Source: Bacteroidota bacterium
GTDB taxonomy: Bacteria; Bacteroidota; Bacteroidia; JACPRZ01
Direction: 5' to 3'
Assembly (NCBI GenBank): GCA_016193485.1
Contig: JACPRZ010000061.1
Location: 6,855-70,854 of the forward strand
DNA: 64,000 nucleotides
Below the pieces are notes generated by a model that worked only from the letters and a program-made list of their open reading frames with translations, searched no databases and was not told the DNA's origin. Below are positions 5,877 through 63,314 of this stretch, piece by piece (the stretch's first letter is position 1; the number at the start of each line of letters is the position of its first letter). A program made the position numbers and the translations under genes.

Positions 5877-7072
5877 TAAGAGATGCGTGCAAAAATTTTT
5901 ACCGAAAATGTATACCTGTCATTAATTATTAAATCGGGAGGGTTATTGCCGTTCTTTTTTAGTTCTTCCTGCGCCCTCAGAATCCCGATATTAAATCTGT
6001 TTACATATCCAAGATTTTTTACAGCTTCGGCAAGGGCAGGATTCCTGTAATCATTGACACGCGGAAAATTTTCCGGGGTTACCAGTCCATAAAGTCCCCC
6101 AGGGTTTGTAATTTCAATGCAATTTTCAAATTCATAAAATTTAACAAATGAATTGCTCTGATAATCGCGGTGAATTATTGCATTGAAAAGAAATTCACGT
6201 ATTGCCCATGCAGGATAATTGTTAAAATATTCTTCCTGAATACTTTTGTTTTTTCTAACGGCTTTTGTTTTAATAATTTGAGCGTTGATAAATTCATCCA
6301 ATACTTTCATCTGGGTTGTCAGGTCACCGCTGAATTTTTTTTCCAAGTCAAATTCATCTGTAACAGATGTTCCTTTAAAACGGATGTACTGAATATAGGC
6401 GCCCGGAAGGAAATGCATGGGATTTATACCAAACATTAAAATTCCCGCAACCGTAGGGCAATTATGTTTTATATCATAAAACTGCAGAGATGCCAATTGG
6501 TTAACGGATTCCCGATTATTTGCCTTGAGCGTTTCACCATCTATTGCATTGGGAAGGTAAACCGTGCGGAATATTTCCATACTAAGGTCATTCATTGTAC
6601 TGCCAAGGCATGGAAATGCATCATAGGTTCTTGCATTAGTTGACCTCTTTTCGTTTAGTATTCTTTCTTCCTGTTCGTTGGCTACACCCCTGCGGGGACC
6701 AATCCGGATATAAATTTGATGCTTAAATTTTACAGGAGGCAATGTAGAGGGTTGAACTTCCACTACAGCCACGTCTCCATCTGGTAAAATAAATCTAGCG
6801 ACTGTTATTGCGGGTGGCGGTACAATTCTCCCGTCATTTCTGAAATCCATTAGTAATTGCAACAGCGGCTCGGTTACCATGAGACCATTTAATAAATTAT
6901 CCTTCTTCACTCCAATAATAAGGTATCCGGGCTTATTATGGTTAGGCAGATCATTGGCAAAAGAGCATATTGCCTCACCGAATTTCTGAGAATCGGTAGT
7001 TGATTCGGTTTTTTCTATCCTGTCATCTTCTGGATTGCTAATAAAATTTATTAATTGTTCCCTTGAAATCAT
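5876..7072 (-). CDS. AlbA_2 (Schlafen-like) domain fused to RecG-C/HATPase_c_4-like domain
   Basis: EDDRIEKT, ICSFAND...GYLIIGV, REFLFNAIIHRDY, IEITNPGGL and YRNPALAE motifs. Confidence 0.85.
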   Translation of the reverse strand: MISREQLINFISNPEDDRIEKTESTTDSQKFGEAICSFANDLPNHNKPGYLIIGVKKDNLLNGLMVTEPLLQLLMDFRNDGRIVPPPAITVARFILPDGDVAVVEVQPSTLPPVKFKHQIYIRIGPRRGVANEQEERILNEKRSTNARTYDAFPCLGSTMNDLSMEIFRTVYLPNAIDGETLKANNRESVNQLASLQFYDIKHNCPTVAGILMFGINPMHFLPGAYIQYIRFKGTSVTDEFDLEKKFSGDLTTQMKVLDEFINAQIIKTKAVRKNKSIQEEYFNNYPAWAIREFLFNAIIHRDYQSNSFVKFYEFENCIEITNPGGLYGLVTPENFPRVNDYRNPALAEAVKNLGYVNRFNIGILRAQEELKKNGNNPPDLIINDRYTFSVKIFARIS

Positions 7073-24736: not shown

Positions 24737-24778
24737 TGCCTCTGATCAATAATATTTTAACCAATTTTGGCAAAAGTA

Positions 24779-24939
24779 ATAAATCCGAATAACAAAATCC
24801 AAAATTCGAAAGAATATCTAATAACAAAAATTAAAAAACAAATGCAAATACAAACTGCCGCTATCTGTCAGATGTTTGTTTTTTTGAATTTTGACATTTC
24901 TATTTCGAATTTGTTTCGGGATTCGGATTTCGGATTTAT
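24779..24939. repeat. ~160-bp inverted AAATCCG-array element, copy 1 (copy 2 inverted at 62871..63047)
   Basis: The reverse complement shares blocks with copy 2: taaatccgaaatccgaa, aaatgtc(c)aaaattcaaaa, tttgtatttgcatttg and gttattagatatt. Confidence 0.8.
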
Positions 24940-25031
24940 GTTTTTCATGTTTGGTTGTGGCTTGTCCACGTTGGGATTATGATTCTTAATTTATAATGCT
25001 TTCGTGGAAAAGTTCATTAATGATACTCTGA

Positions 25032-36087: not shown

Positions 36088-36151
36088 GGTTGTTTCCGAT
36101 GATGAAGTACAAAAGTAAACCAAATAATGATTTCGGTCATCTGGCGCTGCC

Positions 36152-36853
36152 ATGAACATCATTGAGGTAACCGAACTTATCAGGAAGGAAATTCTCATTG
36201 AGTTCCGGAGGAAGTCATCCCTTGGAGGTCTCATCCTTTATACGGTAAGCGCGCTCTTCATTTTTTTTCTGACCATAAAAAAATTCAATGATCCTGCAGT
36301 CATTAATGCAATATTGTGGATTACCATTCTCTTTGGCAGCGTGAATGTTGCGGCAAGGAGTTTTATTCAGGAAGGGGAAGGCAGCCACTTTTATTTCTAT
36401 ACACTGGTTTCTTCGCAAACCCTGATCATTTCAAAAATCATTTATAATTTTTTTATCATTGTAATGCTTTCATTTATTGCTAGCGGTGCGGTCTGGTTGT
36501 GGTCAGGCAACCTGGGAGGCCTGCCTGCCTTGATGGAAATGCATGAGCAACGGCAGGCAGGGAACTTTCCGGAATTCCTGCTCATCATTTTGCTGGGTAG
36601 CACAGGGCTGTCCACGCTTCTTACTTTTGTCTCATCCATTTCGTCAAAATCAACCAACCAGCCGATGTTGATGGCCATCTTGAGTTTCCCGCTTATCTTA
36701 CCCCTGCTGATGGTCGTCATCCGGTTAACCGAAGCGGTTTTTGAAGGAAGCGGTTTCAGTGAAATTATCAAGGATATAAGCATACTCGCATCGCTTGACA
36801 TAATTATTATTACTCTTGCGATAATTCTGTTTCCTTATCTCTGGAAGGAATAA
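36152..36853 (+). CDS. ccmB: Heme exporter protein B
   Basis: LIRKEILIEFR, LMAILSFPLILP and ILFPYLWKE. Carries a 14-aa repeat-derived insertion. Confidence 0.9.
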   Translation: MNIIEVTELIRKEILIEFRRKSSLGGLILYTVSALFIFFLTIKKFNDPAVINAILWITILFGSVNVAARSFIQEGEGSHFYFYTLVSSQTLIISKIIYNFFIIVMLSFIASGAVWLWSGNLGGLPALMEMHEQRQAGNFPEFLLIILLGSTGLSTLLTFVSSISSKSTNQPMLMAILSFPLILPLLMVVIRLTEAVFEGSGFSEIIKDISILASLDIIIITLAIILFPYLWKE

Positions 36854-38381: not shown

Positions 38382-38444
38382 CGGAGTGGTACCTGCCTGC
38401 CGGAACACCGGAATCAACTGCAATATTGAAAAAAACATGATGGT

Positions 38445-40898
38445 ATGACCTACCAGGGTGAACAACTTATTTATGGATATGCCGGCAACCTGCTGATATA
38501 CCTTTCTTTTACCGCTGCACTTGGTTCCGCACTGCTTTATTTTTTCGCTTCGGATAAAAACGAAATCAAATGGAGAAAATCGGCAAGAATAATTTTTCTT
38601 GTCCAGTTTCTTTCAACTGCATGCATCATCCTTCTTCTTCTCTTCCTGCTGGTCAACCACCGTTTTGAATATTATTATGTTTGGCAGCACTCCAATTCTG
38701 AGACACCGCTTCACTATATTGTATCCTCTCTCTGGGAAGGACAGGAAGGAAGTTTTCTCATGTGGATGTTCTGGAACGGGATGCTTGGGATATTCCTTGT
38801 AAAAACGGCACAAAAATGGGAACCGGTAACAATGGTCACAGTTTCGCTGGTGCAGGTTTTTATTGCATCAATGCTGCTGGGAATAGATTTTTTCGGATAT
38901 AAAATAGGTAGCAACCCGTTCATTCTTTTGCGTGATCATCCCGACATGGCGAATATGCCTTTTGCCAAAGTACCCGATTATTTATCCAAAATTGACGGCC
39001 GCGGGCTGAATCCTCTCCTCCAGAATTACTGGATGCTCATTCATCCCCCGGTTCTTTTTCTCGGTTTTGCTTTGACCTTAATACCTTTTGCTTATGCTGT
39101 TGCAGGATTATGGATAAAAGAATACGATACCTGGCAGAAACCTGCATTGCCTTGGATTTTCTCAGGAGTCGCTGTACTGGGTGCCGGAGTGCTTATGGGG
39201 GGGGCGTGGGCTTATGAAGCGCTTAGTTTCGGTGGCTTCTGGGCATGGGACCCCGTGGAAAATTCATCCCTAGTGCCCTGGCTTACGCTTGTAGCGGGAG
39301 GACATTCCCTGCTCATCAATATCCATAGCCGGCAGTCGTACAGGACTTCCTTTGCACTGCTCATCATCACATTTGTTCTTGTCCTTTATTCAACTTTTCT
39401 TACCCGCAGCGGAATTCTAGGTGATACATCGGTGCACGCCTTCACCGATCTCGGCATGTCGGGGCAATTGCTGGTTTACCTTCTTTTTTTTGCAATTGCA
39501 GGGTTCGCCCTGTTGCTCAAGAACTGGAAACAGATTCCATCCCACCGGCAGAATGAACATCTCCTCTCGCGTGAATTCTGGATGTTTACGGGCGCTTTGG
39601 TGTTGTGCATATCCTCCTTCCAGATCATCTTTACCACTTCCATACCGGTAATAAATAAAATATTCGGTGCCGGACTGGCTCCCCCGGTCAATCCTGCGGC
39701 CCATTACAACACGTGGCAGGTGCCCTTTGCCGTGATCATTGCGTTGTTCTCAGGGGCAGGGCTCTTCCTGAAATTCAGGAATACGGACAGGAAATTATTT
39801 CTGAAGGATATTCTTTTACCCGTGATAGTGGCGCTCATTCTGTCACTGGCAATAATTCTGGGATTATCCATTAAACGGCCTGACCTGATCGTACTGCTTT
39901 TCACTTCGCTCTTTTCCATCGGAGCCAACACAAAATACATTTTCAGGGTTTTAGGGGGGGGGTGGATGAAAGCGGGTAAAGGTCTTGCCCATACCGGTTT
40001 TGCCATGATTCTCGCAGGCGCTTTGATATCCACCCACAAAAGTGTTGTGATCTCCCAAAACTCATCCGGCATTGATGTCACAGCGCTTGGAAAAGAATTC
40101 TCCAACCGCGAAAACATCCTGCTGATGGTTGGGGACACTCTCCGCATGCATGCCTGGCCGGCCGTGCCTGCCGGCAGGCAGGTAGGCAGGGGTGAATACC
40201 TTGTCAGTTACCGGGGCAAGGAACTGCACGGTAAAAATGTGCTCTTCAGGATTGACTTCATGAAACCGGGGGAAAAAGATGGCGACACCGCACTGCACCT
40301 TTTTTCTCTTTTCCCGCGTGTGCAACTTAATCCGAAGATGGGAAATGTTGCTGAGCCCGACACCCGCCACTTCCTGACTAATGATGTTTACACCTTTGTG
40401 AATTTTGCCGATCTGGATACCGATAAAAACGATTCGGTTAAAATTTCTGAACATACCATTTCCATTGGCGACACCATTTTGCTTTCCAATAGCATGATTA
40501 TCCCTGTGAATCTTTACCGGTTACCGGTAAATGATTCACTGATTCTCATGGCCGGGTTGAGTCCTGATTCGCTTGAATTAGCGGTAAAAGCGGAACTGGA
40601 AATCATCCGGATGAAAAAAAAGAGCGGCTATATCTATCCTGTTTTTATTATCAGTAAAAACAATTTCATCTCGTTCATTGATGATGAAGATAAAGAGACG
40701 GGCATATCCGTTTCATTCGTGCGCATCTTCCCCGAAATGGGAAAGATCCACCTGCGGATAACGGAAAGAAAAAATGAAAGCCGCGATTTCATTATTATGA
40801 AGGCAATCGTATTCCCGTATATAAATATTTTGTGGGCGGGTGCGGTGGCGATGGTGCTGGGAACCGTTATTTCGGTAATTAAAAGAATTAAAAAATAA
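38445..40898 (+). CDS. ccmF: Cytochrome c biogenesis heme lyase CcmF
   Basis: SLWEGQEGS, LLQNYWMLIHPP, GGFWAWDPVEN, FLTRSGIL and AHTG. Confidence 0.95.
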   Translation: MTYQGEQLIYGYAGNLLIYLSFTAALGSALLYFFASDKNEIKWRKSARIIFLVQFLSTACIILLLLFLLVNHRFEYYYVWQHSNSETPLHYIVSSLWEGQEGSFLMWMFWNGMLGIFLVKTAQKWEPVTMVTVSLVQVFIASMLLGIDFFGYKIGSNPFILLRDHPDMANMPFAKVPDYLSKIDGRGLNPLLQNYWMLIHPPVLFLGFALTLIPFAYAVAGLWIKEYDTWQKPALPWIFSGVAVLGAGVLMGGAWAYEALSFGGFWAWDPVENSSLVPWLTLVAGGHSLLINIHSRQSYRTSFALLIITFVLVLYSTFLTRSGILGDTSVHAFTDLGMSGQLLVYLLFFAIAGFALLLKNWKQIPSHRQNEHLLSREFWMFTGALVLCISSFQIIFTTSIPVINKIFGAGLAPPVNPAAHYNTWQVPFAVIIALFSGAGLFLKFRNTDRKLFLKDILLPVIVALILSLAIILGLSIKRPDLIVLLFTSLFSIGANTKYIFRVLGGGWMKAGKGLAHTGFAMILAGALISTHKSVVISQNSSGIDVTALGKEFSNRENILLMVGDTLRMHAWPAVPAGRQVGRGEYLVSYRGKELHGKNVLFRIDFMKPGEKDGDTALHLFSLFPRVQLNPKMGNVAEPDTRHFLTNDVYTFVNFADLDTDKNDSVKISEHTISIGDTILLSNSMIIPVNLYRLPVNDSLILMAGLSPDSLELAVKAELEIIRMKKKSGYIYPVFIISKNNFISFIDDEDKETGISVSFVRIFPEMGKIHLRITERKNESRDFIIMKAIVFPYINILWAGAVAMVLGTVISVIKRIKK

Positions 40899-46290: not shown

Positions 46291-46362
46291 TTGCATTATT
46301 TCTGATTTCGATACTATTCACTCCGCCTTTGGCGGACAGGGGGCTGGGGGGTGAATAGGTAA

Positions 46363-46639: not shown

Positions 46640-48712
46640 ATGGATGCGGATATCAAATCAAAAATCATTGAATTATCCATTACAGGTATTAAAGATATCT
46701 GGAATTTTGAAGTTCCTTCCGGGTCTATTATCATTCAGAAAACCCGTCCTGAATTCACTAGCGATATTACACTTGTAGTATTTCCTCTCACCAAATTTAC
46801 AAAAACCTCTCCCGACAAAACCGCACAACAACTCGGTGAATATCTGAAAAACCGTATTCCTGAAATTGAAGGTTTTAATGTAATAAAAGGATTCCTCAAT
46901 ATATCTCTTATCAATTCTTTCTGGATTTCCTTTCTTCATGACATGTATGATGATACCCGTTTCGGTTTCACCCCCCCCGGCTCATCCGCATCGGTTATGG
47001 TTGAATTTTCTTCGCCAAATACCAACAAGCCGCTGCATCTCGGCCATATCCGCAACAACCTGATCGGTAATTCACTTTCGGAGATTCTTTCGGCAACAGG
47101 CAATAAGGTCATTAAAGCGAACCTCGTAAATGACAGGGGAATTCATATCTGTAAGTCAATGTATGCATGGAAAGAATGGGGAGCCGGTGAAACTCCGGAG
47201 TCATCGGGAATAAAGGGAGATAAACTTGTAGGAAAATATTATGTTGAGTTTGAAAAGAGATTAATTGCACAAACAAAGGAAAAAATAATAAGCATTTATA
47301 CACAAATTATTAAACAAGCAACCCCTATAAATGAAATTAAAAAAGAAGATATAAAATTAGCAACCTTTGATGCTATACCCAGAACAATTGAAACGGATTA
47401 TGATTACAATGAAATTAAAGATGCTTTTGCAAGAGCGCTAATTACTTACAATCAAACCGGAAGATTTCCTTCTATTGAAGAAGACAAATTTATCATTGAA
47501 TATTTTAAAAAATATACTTCTTTATTTAATGATGCGCAGGAAATGCTCCGTAAATGGGAGGATGGCGATGAAACTACTATTTTCCTCTGGAAAAAAATGA
47601 ATGACTGGGTTTATAAGGGTTTTGAAACTACTTACCGTGAACTGGGCATTTCATTTGATAAAACTTACTATGAGTCGGAGACATATCTTTTGGGAAAAGA
47701 GATAGTGGATGAGGGTGTCCGGAAGAATGTATTTATCCGAAAAGAAGACGGTTCCGTATGGTGTGATTTAACCGATGACGGGCTGGATGAAAAACTCCTT
47801 CAGCGTTCGGACGGCACTTCCGTTTATATGACACAGGATATTGGCACTGCAGCAGAAAGGTTTAAGGAATTTCCCGGAATGAAAAAATTAATTTACGTGG
47901 TTGGAAGCGAACAGGAGTATCATTTCAAGGTACTTTTTCTGATATTAAAAAAACTCGGCTATTCCTGGGCCGGTGACTGTCATCATCTCTCCTATGGAAT
48001 GGTTGACCTGCCGGAAGGGAAAATGAAATCGCGCGAAGGAACCGTTGTGGATGCCGATGACCTGATTGAGGAAATGTACGAAACGAGCAGGCAAACAACA
48101 AAAGAACTCGGTAAACTTGAAGGAATTCCCGATAAAGAAAAAGAATCAATATGCAGGATGATCGGCATGGGCGCATTAAAATATTTTATTCTGAAAGTTG
48201 ACCCAAAGAAAAGGATGGTTTTTAATCCGAAAGAATCCATTGACTTTGAGGGAAACACCGGTCCTTTTATTCAATACACTTATGCGAGGATACAATCGTT
48301 GTTGAGGAAAGCAGGGGACTGGAGAAAGGTTACGGGAGACCTGCCTGCCGGCAGGCACGGCAGAAGACAGGACACAGGGAATACATTAAAGATCCAACCG
48401 GTAGAAAAAAATGTGATTAAATTGATTTTTGATTTTCCAGGAGTCATCAGGCAAGCAGCAGATGAATTTAACCCGGCTGTTATTGCAAACTACATGTATG
48501 AACTCGCAAAAGAATTTAATCATTTCTACCAGACGGTCCCGGTATTGCCCGCCAAAGGCGGGTCCCTGCCTGCCGGTCAGGCAGGCGCCTCTGGCGGAAA
48601 GGCGGAAGATGAGGAGCGGTTGAATTTCCGGCTGCGGTTATCCGATACTACCGGAAAAATAATCAAAAAAGGTATGAACCTGCTTGGGATAAATGTGCCG
48701 GAGAAAATGTGA
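46640..48712 (+). CDS. argS: Arginine--tRNA ligase
   Basis: EFSSPNTNKPLHLGH, KMKSREG and LLGINVPEKM. TACCTTTG promoter at 46607-46614. Carries three insertions. Confidence 0.97.
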   Translation: MDADIKSKIIELSITGIKDIWNFEVPSGSIIIQKTRPEFTSDITLVVFPLTKFTKTSPDKTAQQLGEYLKNRIPEIEGFNVIKGFLNISLINSFWISFLHDMYDDTRFGFTPPGSSASVMVEFSSPNTNKPLHLGHIRNNLIGNSLSEILSATGNKVIKANLVNDRGIHICKSMYAWKEWGAGETPESSGIKGDKLVGKYYVEFEKRLIAQTKEKIISIYTQIIKQATPINEIKKEDIKLATFDAIPRTIETDYDYNEIKDAFARALITYNQTGRFPSIEEDKFIIEYFKKYTSLFNDAQEMLRKWEDGDETTIFLWKKMNDWVYKGFETTYRELGISFDKTYYESETYLLGKEIVDEGVRKNVFIRKEDGSVWCDLTDDGLDEKLLQRSDGTSVYMTQDIGTAAERFKEFPGMKKLIYVVGSEQEYHFKVLFLILKKLGYSWAGDCHHLSYGMVDLPEGKMKSREGTVVDADDLIEEMYETSRQTTKELGKLEGIPDKEKESICRMIGMGALKYFILKVDPKKRMVFNPKESIDFEGNTGPFIQYTYARIQSLLRKAGDWRKVTGDLPAGRHGRRQDTGNTLKIQPVEKNVIKLIFDFPGVIRQAADEFNPAVIANYMYELAKEFNHFYQTVPVLPAKGGSLPAGQAGASGGKAEDEERLNFRLRLSDTTGKIIKKGMNLLGINVPEKM
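48340..48360. mobile_element. 21-bp palindromic element CCTGCCTGCCGGCAGGCACGG (other copies at 40162, 48565, 63005; long form at 36520; half copy at 38392)
   Basis: Exact reverse complement of 40162..40182 in ccmF. Confidence 0.75.
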
Positions 48713-62824: not shown

Positions 62825-63314
62825 TGTACTATAATATCATAACGTGGGCAAGCCACAACCAAACAAGAAAATAAATCCGAAATCCGAAACAAATCCGAAA
62901 TACAAATGTCCAAAATTCAAAAAGACAAACACCCAACGGATAGAAATAAATTTGTATTTGCATTTGTTTTTGAAATTTAGTTATTAGATATTGTTTCGGT
63001 TTTCCCTGCCTGACGGCAGTCAGGGGATTTAACTATTCGAATTTTAATCTTTGTTATCGCTAAAAGATATAAAGTTGGAATTCTGATTTTTCGTAGGGAG
63101 ATTAAAATATTTTACCAAAATGTGTCAAGATATTTTTGTTTAGGTACTAAAATCAATTTGCCACAAAAGCACCAAATCTCTAAATTACACTAAATCTTTT
63201 TATGGGATTTGGTGTTTTTGTGTTTTAGTGGCTGAATTTTCAGAGTAACAATTTCTTCTTGCCCTGTAATTCCAATCAGGAACTCAAGGTAATAATCATA
63301 ATTCAAAAACAAAC

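Follow-up and report, generated by a model that had tools for sequence, protein, structure and literature searches.

How does a 51-nt block of nested palindromes come to lie, in frame, inside the gene of an arginyl-tRNA synthetase? The gene, argS, belongs to a Bacteroidota bacterium of the lineage JACPRZ01 (assembly GCA_016193485.1) and was analyzed within a stretch of 64,000 nt, positions 6,855 to 70,854 of contig JACPRZ010000061.1, hereafter the window, to which plain coordinates refer. The assembly holding it is a metagenome-assembled genome (MAG) of 4.0 Mb, in 72 contigs and with 42.8% GC, and its other sites are given by contig and position (C8:1904). The insert is best regarded as a single copy of a composite, widespread hairpin element, apparently translated and, according to a structure model, tolerated in a disordered loop of the enzyme (ArgS or ArgRS). 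We hold with good confidence that the 51 nt are a copy of a tiny, composite, non-coding insertion element that most likely entered argS ready-made. The gene, the insert and its parts are as follows.

46640..48712, + strand: argS, arginyl-tRNA synthetase, 690 aa (from the list of open reading frames (ORFs); Pfam tRNA-synt_1d and DALR_1)
48548..48598, + strand: composite palindromic insertion, 51 nt (from the sequence; 17-column gap in relatives)
48548..48562, + strand: first hairpin (H1), CCCGCC-AAA-GGCGGG, CCCGCCAAAGGCGGG; 15 nt, 6-bp stem, 3-nt loop; first half of a 30-nt double hairpin
48563..48564, + strand: TC, the first 2 nt of the second hairpin (H2), split from the remainder by the inner palindrome; junction TC^CGCC
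48565..48585, + strand: inner palindrome (P, here P21), CCTGCCTGCCGGTCAGGCAGG, that is CCTGCCTGCCGG-T-CAGGCAGG; 21-nt version of the 20-nt palindrome P20
48586..48598, + strand: remaining 13 nt of H2 (CGCC-TCT-GGCGGA), CGCCTCTGGCGGA; from the sequence, with a like junction in other composites

The insertion in argS

The argS gene is single-copy, a search of the whole genome assembly reporting one match, and its product retains the catalytic motifs and all the family-invariant residues, as judged from the invariant alignment columns. Alignment of ArgS with 27 class-level relatives reports an exact 17-column gap in every relative, between ...PVL and KAED..., and the same exact gap is present in all the others when ArgS is aligned with the nearest database proteins (60-66% identity). 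Therefore, the 51 nt are an insertion. The original prediction, made from the letters of the window, had taken this block to be foreign to ArgS and frame-preserving, which the alignments bear out, none of the orthologues carrying an equally long unrelated loop here. The insert lies between the codons of L636 and K654, flanked by ...GTATTG and AAGGCGG..., without target-site duplication. It encodes in frame 17 residues, PAKGGSLPAGQAGASGG (aa 637-653), and the peptide predicted around it reads ...VLPAKGGSLPAGQAGASGGK... In two independent assemblies, from the runs SRR12113421 and SRR12113425, the contigs agree at every base of argS, which excludes an assembly artefact. No argS orthologue with the insert or an intermediate was found in 40 class-level genomes, genome contigs, metagenome contigs and 5.8 billion proteins. 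The best ArgS relatives in those collections are only 55-66% identical, all without the insert, and intermediates were not found because no collection searched holds a close relative of this genome.

An AlphaFold2 model of ArgS, built on a 99-sequence alignment (mean predicted local distance difference test (pLDDT) 89, predicted template modelling score (pTM) 0.90), depicts residues 633-651 as a coil linking helices 613-632 and 652-681, both in the anticodon-binding domain, with pLDDT <50 for residues 641-644 and 647-652. The nearest solved ArgRS structures (6ao8, 4oby/5yyn and 1f7u) exhibit a short turn where the insert sits. As modelled, then, the inserted residues form a disordered loop that joins the final two helices of this domain, in line with the surface loop for which the original prediction had proposed to look. 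The idea that argS is hit repeatedly was dropped, since just one further argS is found among the element loci described below (L331) and that locus does not have its element in the gene.

Anatomy and folding of the 51 nt

Aligned to the canonical family, the insert is composed of CCCGCCAAAGGCGGG, then TC, the inner palindrome CCTGCCTGCCGGTCAGGCAGG, and CGCCTCTGGCGGA. Positions 48563-48598 can alternatively be parsed as TCC + CTGCCTGCCGGTCAGGCAGGC + GCCTCTGGCGGA, the boundary of the inner palindrome being ambiguous by 1 nt because of the flanking C's. Removal of 21 nt from this segment leaves TCCGCCTCTGGCGGA. The arrangement first proposed, a palindrome nested within a pair of 15-nt hairpins that reappear once it is taken out, is thus confirmed in the sequence. 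The canonical P is a perfect 20-nt palindrome, CCTGCCTGCCGGCAGGCAGG (P20), and the argS copy is P20 plus one extra central T, read as (S)LPAGQAG. As single-stranded DNA, the 51 nt can adopt two folds: one consists of three small hairpins, and in the other H1 and H2 pair to give a single long hairpin tipped by P (minimum free energy -23.3 kcal/mol, z = -3.1; 0/200 shuffles as good). The RNA fold of the 51 nt is not better than those of shuffled sequences (z = -1.05), and the 51 nt return no Rfam match.

The composite in this and other genomes

The layout H1 + TC[P]CGCC-NNN-GGCGGR is present at five loci of the genome (C8:18802, C18:139680, C24:45100, C34:163 and argS), against ~3e-4 composites expected from the random landing of ~124 P copies in 4 Mb. 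At C8:18802-18858 and C18:139680-139751, further elements (a CCTGCCC...GGGCAGG palindrome and a 37-nt unrelated repeat) are nested inside P, the nesting thus reaching three to four levels.

Scanned against a set with a single genome for each species (596 Gb), the pattern TCCCTGCCT-N6-12-AGGCAGGCGCC-NNN-GGCGG returned 48 foreign loci in at least 7 phyla, all with the identical junction TC^CGCC; for 25 specified bases in 596 Gb, arithmetic predicts ~0.007 by chance. The hosts include Patescibacteria, Omnitrophota, Planctomycetota, Gammaproteobacteria, Bacteroidota and Auribacterota, and the element is also found in genomes of isolates (Winogradskyella, Flagellimonas, Longitalea and Pararhodonellum). 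Most of the 48 loci possess the H1 hairpin upstream, with a stem that varies through compensatory changes (for example TCAGCC/GGCTGA, CACGCC/GGCGTG and TCCGTC/GACGGA). The closest copy to the argS 51-mer, matching at 48/51 positions, belongs to a Campbellbacteria MAG, that is, to another phylum; the best paralogues within the genome itself match at 44/51 and 40/51. Pfam analysis of the host proteins reports GyrB, LeuRS, topoisomerase I (TopA), IF-2, TsaD and RarA, and the two orientations of the composite are about equally frequent (~10 vs 9). Full-text literature searches with the sequences and the peptide returned unrelated primer matches only, and we could not find a published description of these sequences.

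The double hairpin and its solo relatives

Devoid of P, the double hairpin (search pattern GGCGGATCCGCC-NNN-GGCGGA) is found in at least 120 stretches, from still more phyla than the composite, and the genome itself contains one at C8:1904, with the CCCGCC...GGCGGG + TCCGCC...GGCGGA make-up. Among the matches listed, 85 of 107 on the plus strand are full 30-nt double hairpins, the arrays always comprise exactly two units and never more, and the loops follow a complementary xRA / TYx pattern. At the foreign loci L365-L483, the left flank is TTT (T 60/87/64%) and the right flank AAA (A 60/78/61%), and the argS site TTG^AAG matches them at 2/3 positions per side. These flanks represent either a target preference (TTN^NAA) or three more bases of the element on each side. 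Because of the strict twos, the complementary loops and the fixed TTT...AAA flanks, the pair behaves as one element, and the two 15-mers, as far as sequence comparison tells, are one 30-nt double-hairpin unit.

The 15-nt hairpin (H), YCCGCCNNNGGCGGR (YCCGCC-NNN-GGCGGR), occurs twice in the window (48548 and 46322-46336) vs 0.02 expected. The second occurrence is the free copy that the original prediction had pointed out:

46322..46336, + strand: TCCGCCTTTGGCGGA, solo hairpin of 15 nt between genes, 32 nt past the upstream ORF; no T run follows

The genome contains 54 copies of YCCGCC-NNN-GGCGGR vs 4 of an arm-swapped control, so that the absence of other 15-bp copies, which would have spoken against an insertion, is not observed; ~45 of the 54 are solo 15-mers. 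Solo CCCGCC-NNN-GGCGGG hairpins at C53:133248, C56:350509 and C52:22213 directly follow TAnnTTTG, the Bacteroidota -7 promoter motif, and hairpins so placed would sit at transcript starts. A de novo count of perfect 6-bp-stem hairpins reports further over-represented families in the genome (CCCGAT, CCCCCC, TCCCGC, TGTCCC and CGAGAC).

The inner palindrome and its mobility

The pattern CCTGCC-N3-8-GGCAGG is present at ~122 loci of the genome, so that the nested parts, hairpin and palindrome alike, belong to dispersed families as first supposed. In other genomes, the exact P20 20-mer is found in at least 119 stretches vs ~0.5 expected. A filled and an empty site for P are both present in the window, where a dispersed repeat (62860-63060) aligns with its inverted copy (24765-24950) with a clean 20-nt gap and matching flanks:

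63004..63025, + strand: P-type palindrome CCTGCCTGACGGCAGTCAGG, in one copy of the dispersed repeat and missing from the inverted copy (~24799/24800)

Likewise, contig C2 has an intact tRNA-Arg gene and, ~300 nt away, a pseudo-copy that bears a clean P20 insertion in the D-loop region, together with a 40-nt nested palindrome in the T-loop that is also missing from the intact copy. No target-site duplication is seen at the window pair or at the C2 tRNA copies. The flanks of P are nearly unconstrained, with a weak A...T preference only. The idea that P always lands in hairpin loops was rejected, since flank complementarity equals that of a re-paired control (4.05 vs 4.08 of 8). A TTCCCGC..GCGGGAA family of the same genome sometimes carries P in its loop. 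Insertion of P in the D-loop of working tRNA genes of the Candidate Phyla Radiation (CPR) was also discarded, as ARAGORN finds no tRNA after removal of P at L227, L274, L288 and L350, which are tRNA 5' fragments like those in the tRNA cassettes described below.

A second copy of P is located in argS itself:

48340..48359, + strand: second P copy in argS, CCTGCCTGCCGGCAGGCAcG, with one mismatch, in the variable linker aa 566-586 (GDLPAGRHGRRQDTG)

This linker is ~12 residues longer than in the nearest ArgS homologues (model pLDDT 51-62), and AGACAGG-like heptamers follow the P copy (48340-48380). Another segment of ArgS, aa 217-289 (47288-47506), is an AT-rich insertion of ~75 aa (28-31% GC) in the catalytic-domain insertion region; it is missing in most relatives, partly common to a few (P0002, P0094 and P0095), and modelled with lower confidence (pLDDT 56-83). 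Elsewhere in the window, a 24-nt P-like block, CCTGCCGGCAGGCAGGTAGGCAGG, at 40167-40190 is in frame (PAGRQVGR) within an 822-aa ORF (38430-40898), and at 36521-36560 the P arms CTGCCTG ... CAGGCAG lie 26 nt apart, in frame (GLPALMEMHEQRQAG), within a 240-aa ORF (36131-36853); the center of this last copy may itself have been invaded.

Reading frame and translation

In the genome, 9 of 17 P21 copies lie in ORFs of at least 200 aa, vs 5 of 79 P20 copies (Fisher p = 2.4e-5), and among the foreign composites 19 of 34 with 51 nt fall within open frames of 250 aa or more, vs 1 of 14 with 50 nt (p = 0.003). This enrichment of the 21-nt versions of P in genes over the 20-nt versions indicates that the insert is translated, P21 being kept in genes and P20 between genes because frame-breaking copies are lost. 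Among the double-hairpin matches listed, 57 of 107 are located in long frames, 47 of them read as S-A-x-G-G-S-A-x-G-G (binomial p = 3e-14). The module TCC-GCC-xxx-GGC-GGA reads Ser-Ala-x-Gly-Gly on either strand, and P is without a stop in any frame. Such a filter on frame argues against removal of the hairpin from the RNA, for which no filter would be expected. We infer that the argS insert, too, is translated.

Candidate mobilizing enzymes

Four small GIY-YIG genes (83-108 aa) are present in the genome, each wedged at a tRNA or transfer-messenger RNA (tmRNA) locus:

C2:46370-46870, C4:16470-17030, C38:27270-27660 and C31:20800-21400: GIY-YIG loci, beside a tRNA (Arg, Thr, Pro) or a tmRNA-like 3' end

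Every one of these loci also harbors a partial, duplicated tRNA, in which palindromes replace or extend the D- or T-loop region. Around the gene at C2:46497, which encodes 85 aa, three copies of P are found within 500 nt vs ~0.15 expected. Among foreign element loci, tblastn identifies a GIY-YIG homologue in 16/278, vs 0/160 control (argS) loci (p = 8.5e-4), and at several of them the gene is 20-60 nt from the element. The local proteins match Pfam GIY-YIG and PDB 1zg2 (UPF0213) only. GIY-YIG enzymes of the Ssn family (cd10448) cut single-stranded DNA beside their own hairpin repeats (NTS/SRM consensus CGTCATTCCCGCG..GCGGGAATC, NTS being CGTCATTCCCGCGMAVGCGGGAATCYRG), and these SRMs are described as lying between genes and as linked with transformation (Chenal et al. 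2025, PMC11893778). As with Ssn and its SRMs, the element described here is a short GC-rich hairpin repeat with many copies per genome, of which some, though a minority, lie near a small single-domain GIY-YIG gene; H and P differ in that they do not match the NTS/SRM consensus, and SRMs are not described as in-frame inserts or transposing elements.

Seven Y1-transposase genes (Y1_Tnp, PF01797) are also found in the genome. Mobilization by a REP-associated tyrosine transposase (RAYT; REP, repetitive extragenic palindrome) was considered and rejected, as none of the seven has H or P within 600 nt; the hairpins flanking them belong to the TGTCCC, CACGACC and CCCGAT families. At the RAYT/IS200-like loci (C46:31272-31903, C9:24675-25203, C66:4275-4459, C42:24004 and C45:36055), Y1 genes have hairpins of their own on both sides, TGTCCC..GGGACA occurring four times at C46 and CACGACC..GGTCGTG at C9. 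Three Y1 genes have CCCCGAT..ATCGGGG palindromes nearby, and the CCCGAT family may be part of a REP/RAYT pair rather than GIY-YIG-linked.

From these associations we tentatively consider the GIY-YIG nucleases as the best candidates for mobilizing the folded elements, an assignment that we would not yet call probable. The sequence of events would be that a 30-nt double hairpin carries P21 two bases into H2, the H1:H2 fold placing P at the top of the hairpin; that the folded element is recognized on single-stranded DNA by a small, tRNA-lodged, Ssn-like GIY-YIG nuclease, with host repair or ligation completing the insertion after cleavage; and that the composite entered argS as a pre-formed unit, cleanly and without target duplication, between the L636 and K654 codons. 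It would persist there through a length that is a multiple of three, the lack of a stop in the frame used, and a flexible surface loop of Gly, Ser, Ala and Pro.

One insertion or several

Several hits in argS are probably unnecessary because the composite recurs at five loci of the genome and 48 foreign ones. An assembly in advance is favored by the junction, identical in at least 53 loci, by a P without site preference, and by a nearest neighbor from another phylum. A single 51-nt entry is the history that we prefer, if only with restrained confidence. The original prediction had instead proposed two or three sequential events. What speaks against it is that the two 15-mers form a fixed 30-nt pair and that the composite pre-exists elsewhere; what survives of it is the main alternative, a 30-nt double hairpin (10 codons) joined later by a 21-nt P inside it, a course of events that we regard as possible and clearly the less likely one. 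It gains from the abundance of P-less double hairpins, often genic, including the matching unit at C8:1904, from a P that is independently mobile (the filled/empty pair of the window and the C2 tRNA copies) and whose site is the apical loop of the long H1:H2 hairpin, and from the argS P21 subtype, which is also found solo at C7:20433. The same alternative requires, however, that P struck the identical TC^CGCC in at least 53 separate loci despite its near-absent site preference, although only ~6% of P copies lie in palindromic contexts; furthermore, the 20-nt P, ~5 times commoner than P21, would be lethal at the argS position, and the nearest relative of the whole 51-mer belongs to another phylum. 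The expected intermediate, xAKGGSASGG, is abundant elsewhere and present in the same genome (C8:1904), but it was not found in argS orthologues. Three hits, that is, two separate 15-mer insertions plus P, are very unlikely because the 30-mer behaves as one unit: solo 15-mers are indeed common in the genome (~45/54, including 46322-46336), but many of them follow TAnnTTTG or lie between genes and may be of a different class, whereas across phyla the units occur strictly in twos among the matches listed, with complementary xRA / TYx loops and fixed TTT...AAA flanks that make the pair one element. The little weight that remains falls to readings without mobility.

One of these readings, which we consider improbable, holds that the hairpin block is under selection, as a cis-element or as a protein loop of some use, such as an mRNA structure pacing translation or a tRNA-contacting extension. 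The stems do keep their pairing through compensatory changes (TCCGAC/GTCGGA, TCAGCC/GGCTGA, CACGCC/GGCGTG) and the site is in the anticodon-binding domain, but such changes are equally expected if a mobilizing enzyme recognizes the hairpin, and the same element is found at unrelated positions of unrelated proteins, in both orientations, as well as in intergenic DNA; the modelled loop is disordered, the RNA fold reaches z = -1.05 only, and Rfam has no match. An assembly or library artefact, that is, a chimeric palindrome or adapter-like sequence, might be suspected because the genome is a MAG, library chimeras can yield palindromes, and the H1|H2 boundary contains a BamHI site and resembles Gly-Ser linker DNA, the literature matches to GGCGGATCCGCC being cloning primers. 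This explanation is effectively refuted by the identity of argS in two independent run assemblies, by frame selection, variable loops and compensated stems, by the presence of the element in isolate genomes (Winogradskyella, Flagellimonas, Longitalea, Pararhodonellum), and by its structured association with the tRNA/GIY-YIG cassettes.

Several points nonetheless weigh against a ready-made, translated composite moved by GIY-YIG nucleases. The choice between unit insertion and a 30-nt entry with a later 21-nt one draws on other loci only, and several P21 subtypes occur in composites with the same subtypes also solo, as would equally be expected if P had repeatedly inserted, in a targeted manner, into double hairpins already in place. 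P is not generally in hairpin loops, ~6% of its copies being inside longer palindromes, and translation is argued from frame statistics. As to the enzyme, a nuclease gene is near only ~6% of the sampled element loci, most copies being solitary, and within the genome itself the link comes from one locus (C2). Enzymes of the GIY-YIG type cleave DNA without ligating it, and the genome also possesses the seven Y1-transposase genes, though neither H nor P flanks any of them.

Comparison with known small repeats

The element works like the small dispersed repeats (SDR4-6) reportedly described by Elhai et al. in 2008 in Nostoc and related cyanobacteria. SDRs, too, comprise 20-30 nt devoid of coding capacity, insert precisely without target duplication, are nested in one another and in other repeats, and occasionally lie in frame in genes, and their mobilizing enzyme is not known either. 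Units of this size, precise insertion and nesting are all found here. However, SDR sequences are reportedly different and belong to one cyanobacterial lineage, whereas the double hairpin, P and the composite recur nearly letter for letter in many phyla, the hosts found here not being cyanobacteria. To our knowledge, a fixed 30- or 51-nt composite architecture, a strong frame preference and a link to GIY-YIG/tRNA cassettes have not been described for SDRs. The element departs from them in its pan-phylum range, fixed composite architecture and candidate nuclease, and apparently in its sequences.

The Rickettsia palindromic elements (RPE), said to have been reported by Ogata et al. in 2000, are ~100-150 bp long and restricted to Rickettsia. 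Like them, the present element is an in-frame palindromic repeat in housekeeping genes, to be read as a surface segment with function kept; insertion in frame in conserved genes is attested here by the 17-codon gap and the frame statistics, which also suggest translation. It differs by its 30-51 nt, modular hairpins, many phyla and Bacteroidota host, and neither the ~100-150 bp length nor Rickettsia-specific families are found. REPs and REPINs (REP doublets) are extragenic, lineage-specific, and flank their own RAYT (Y1 HUH) gene. The likeness lies in short GC-rich hairpins, often as inverted pairs, amplified within genomes and with compensated stems. Neither H nor P flanks any of the seven PF01797 genes, and the copies are often not extragenic, 9/17 P21, 57/107 double hairpins and 19/34 51-nt composites being in long ORFs. 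Classical miniature inverted-repeat transposable elements (MITEs), for their part, possess terminal inverted repeats and a target-site duplication, exceed ~50-100 bp, and derive from insertion sequences, while the present elements measure 20-51 nt and are without duplication at argS, at the window pair and at the C2 tRNA copies. The element lacks some of the features that define REP/RAYT, MITEs and RPEs.

Significance

The element looks selfish, and the argS insert a ready-made tiny insertion rather than a local oddity. A wider proposal, possible but doubtful at this stage, is that the double hairpin, P and the composite constitute a family of minimal mobile DNA found across the bacteria, which tiny tRNA-lodged, Ssn-like GIY-YIG nucleases would carry both within genomes and from phylum to phylum, and whose sequence would have evolved to be translation-proof. 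If so, argS would clearly illustrate a class of mobile DNA well below MITEs in size, with elements of 30-51 nt that are nearly identical from Bacteroidota to CPR, Omnitrophota, Planctomycetota and Proteobacteria and routinely in frame in essential genes. They could hide in such genes (argS, gyrB, leuS, topA, infB), where imprecise loss would be lethal. The finding would also touch the question of what moves very small palindromic repeats, giving a concrete candidate enzyme and defined substrates. Lastly, it would bear on the origin of short, low-complexity Gly/Ser/Ala loops in conserved proteins, which annotation and phylogenetics would mistake for lineage-specific protein features.

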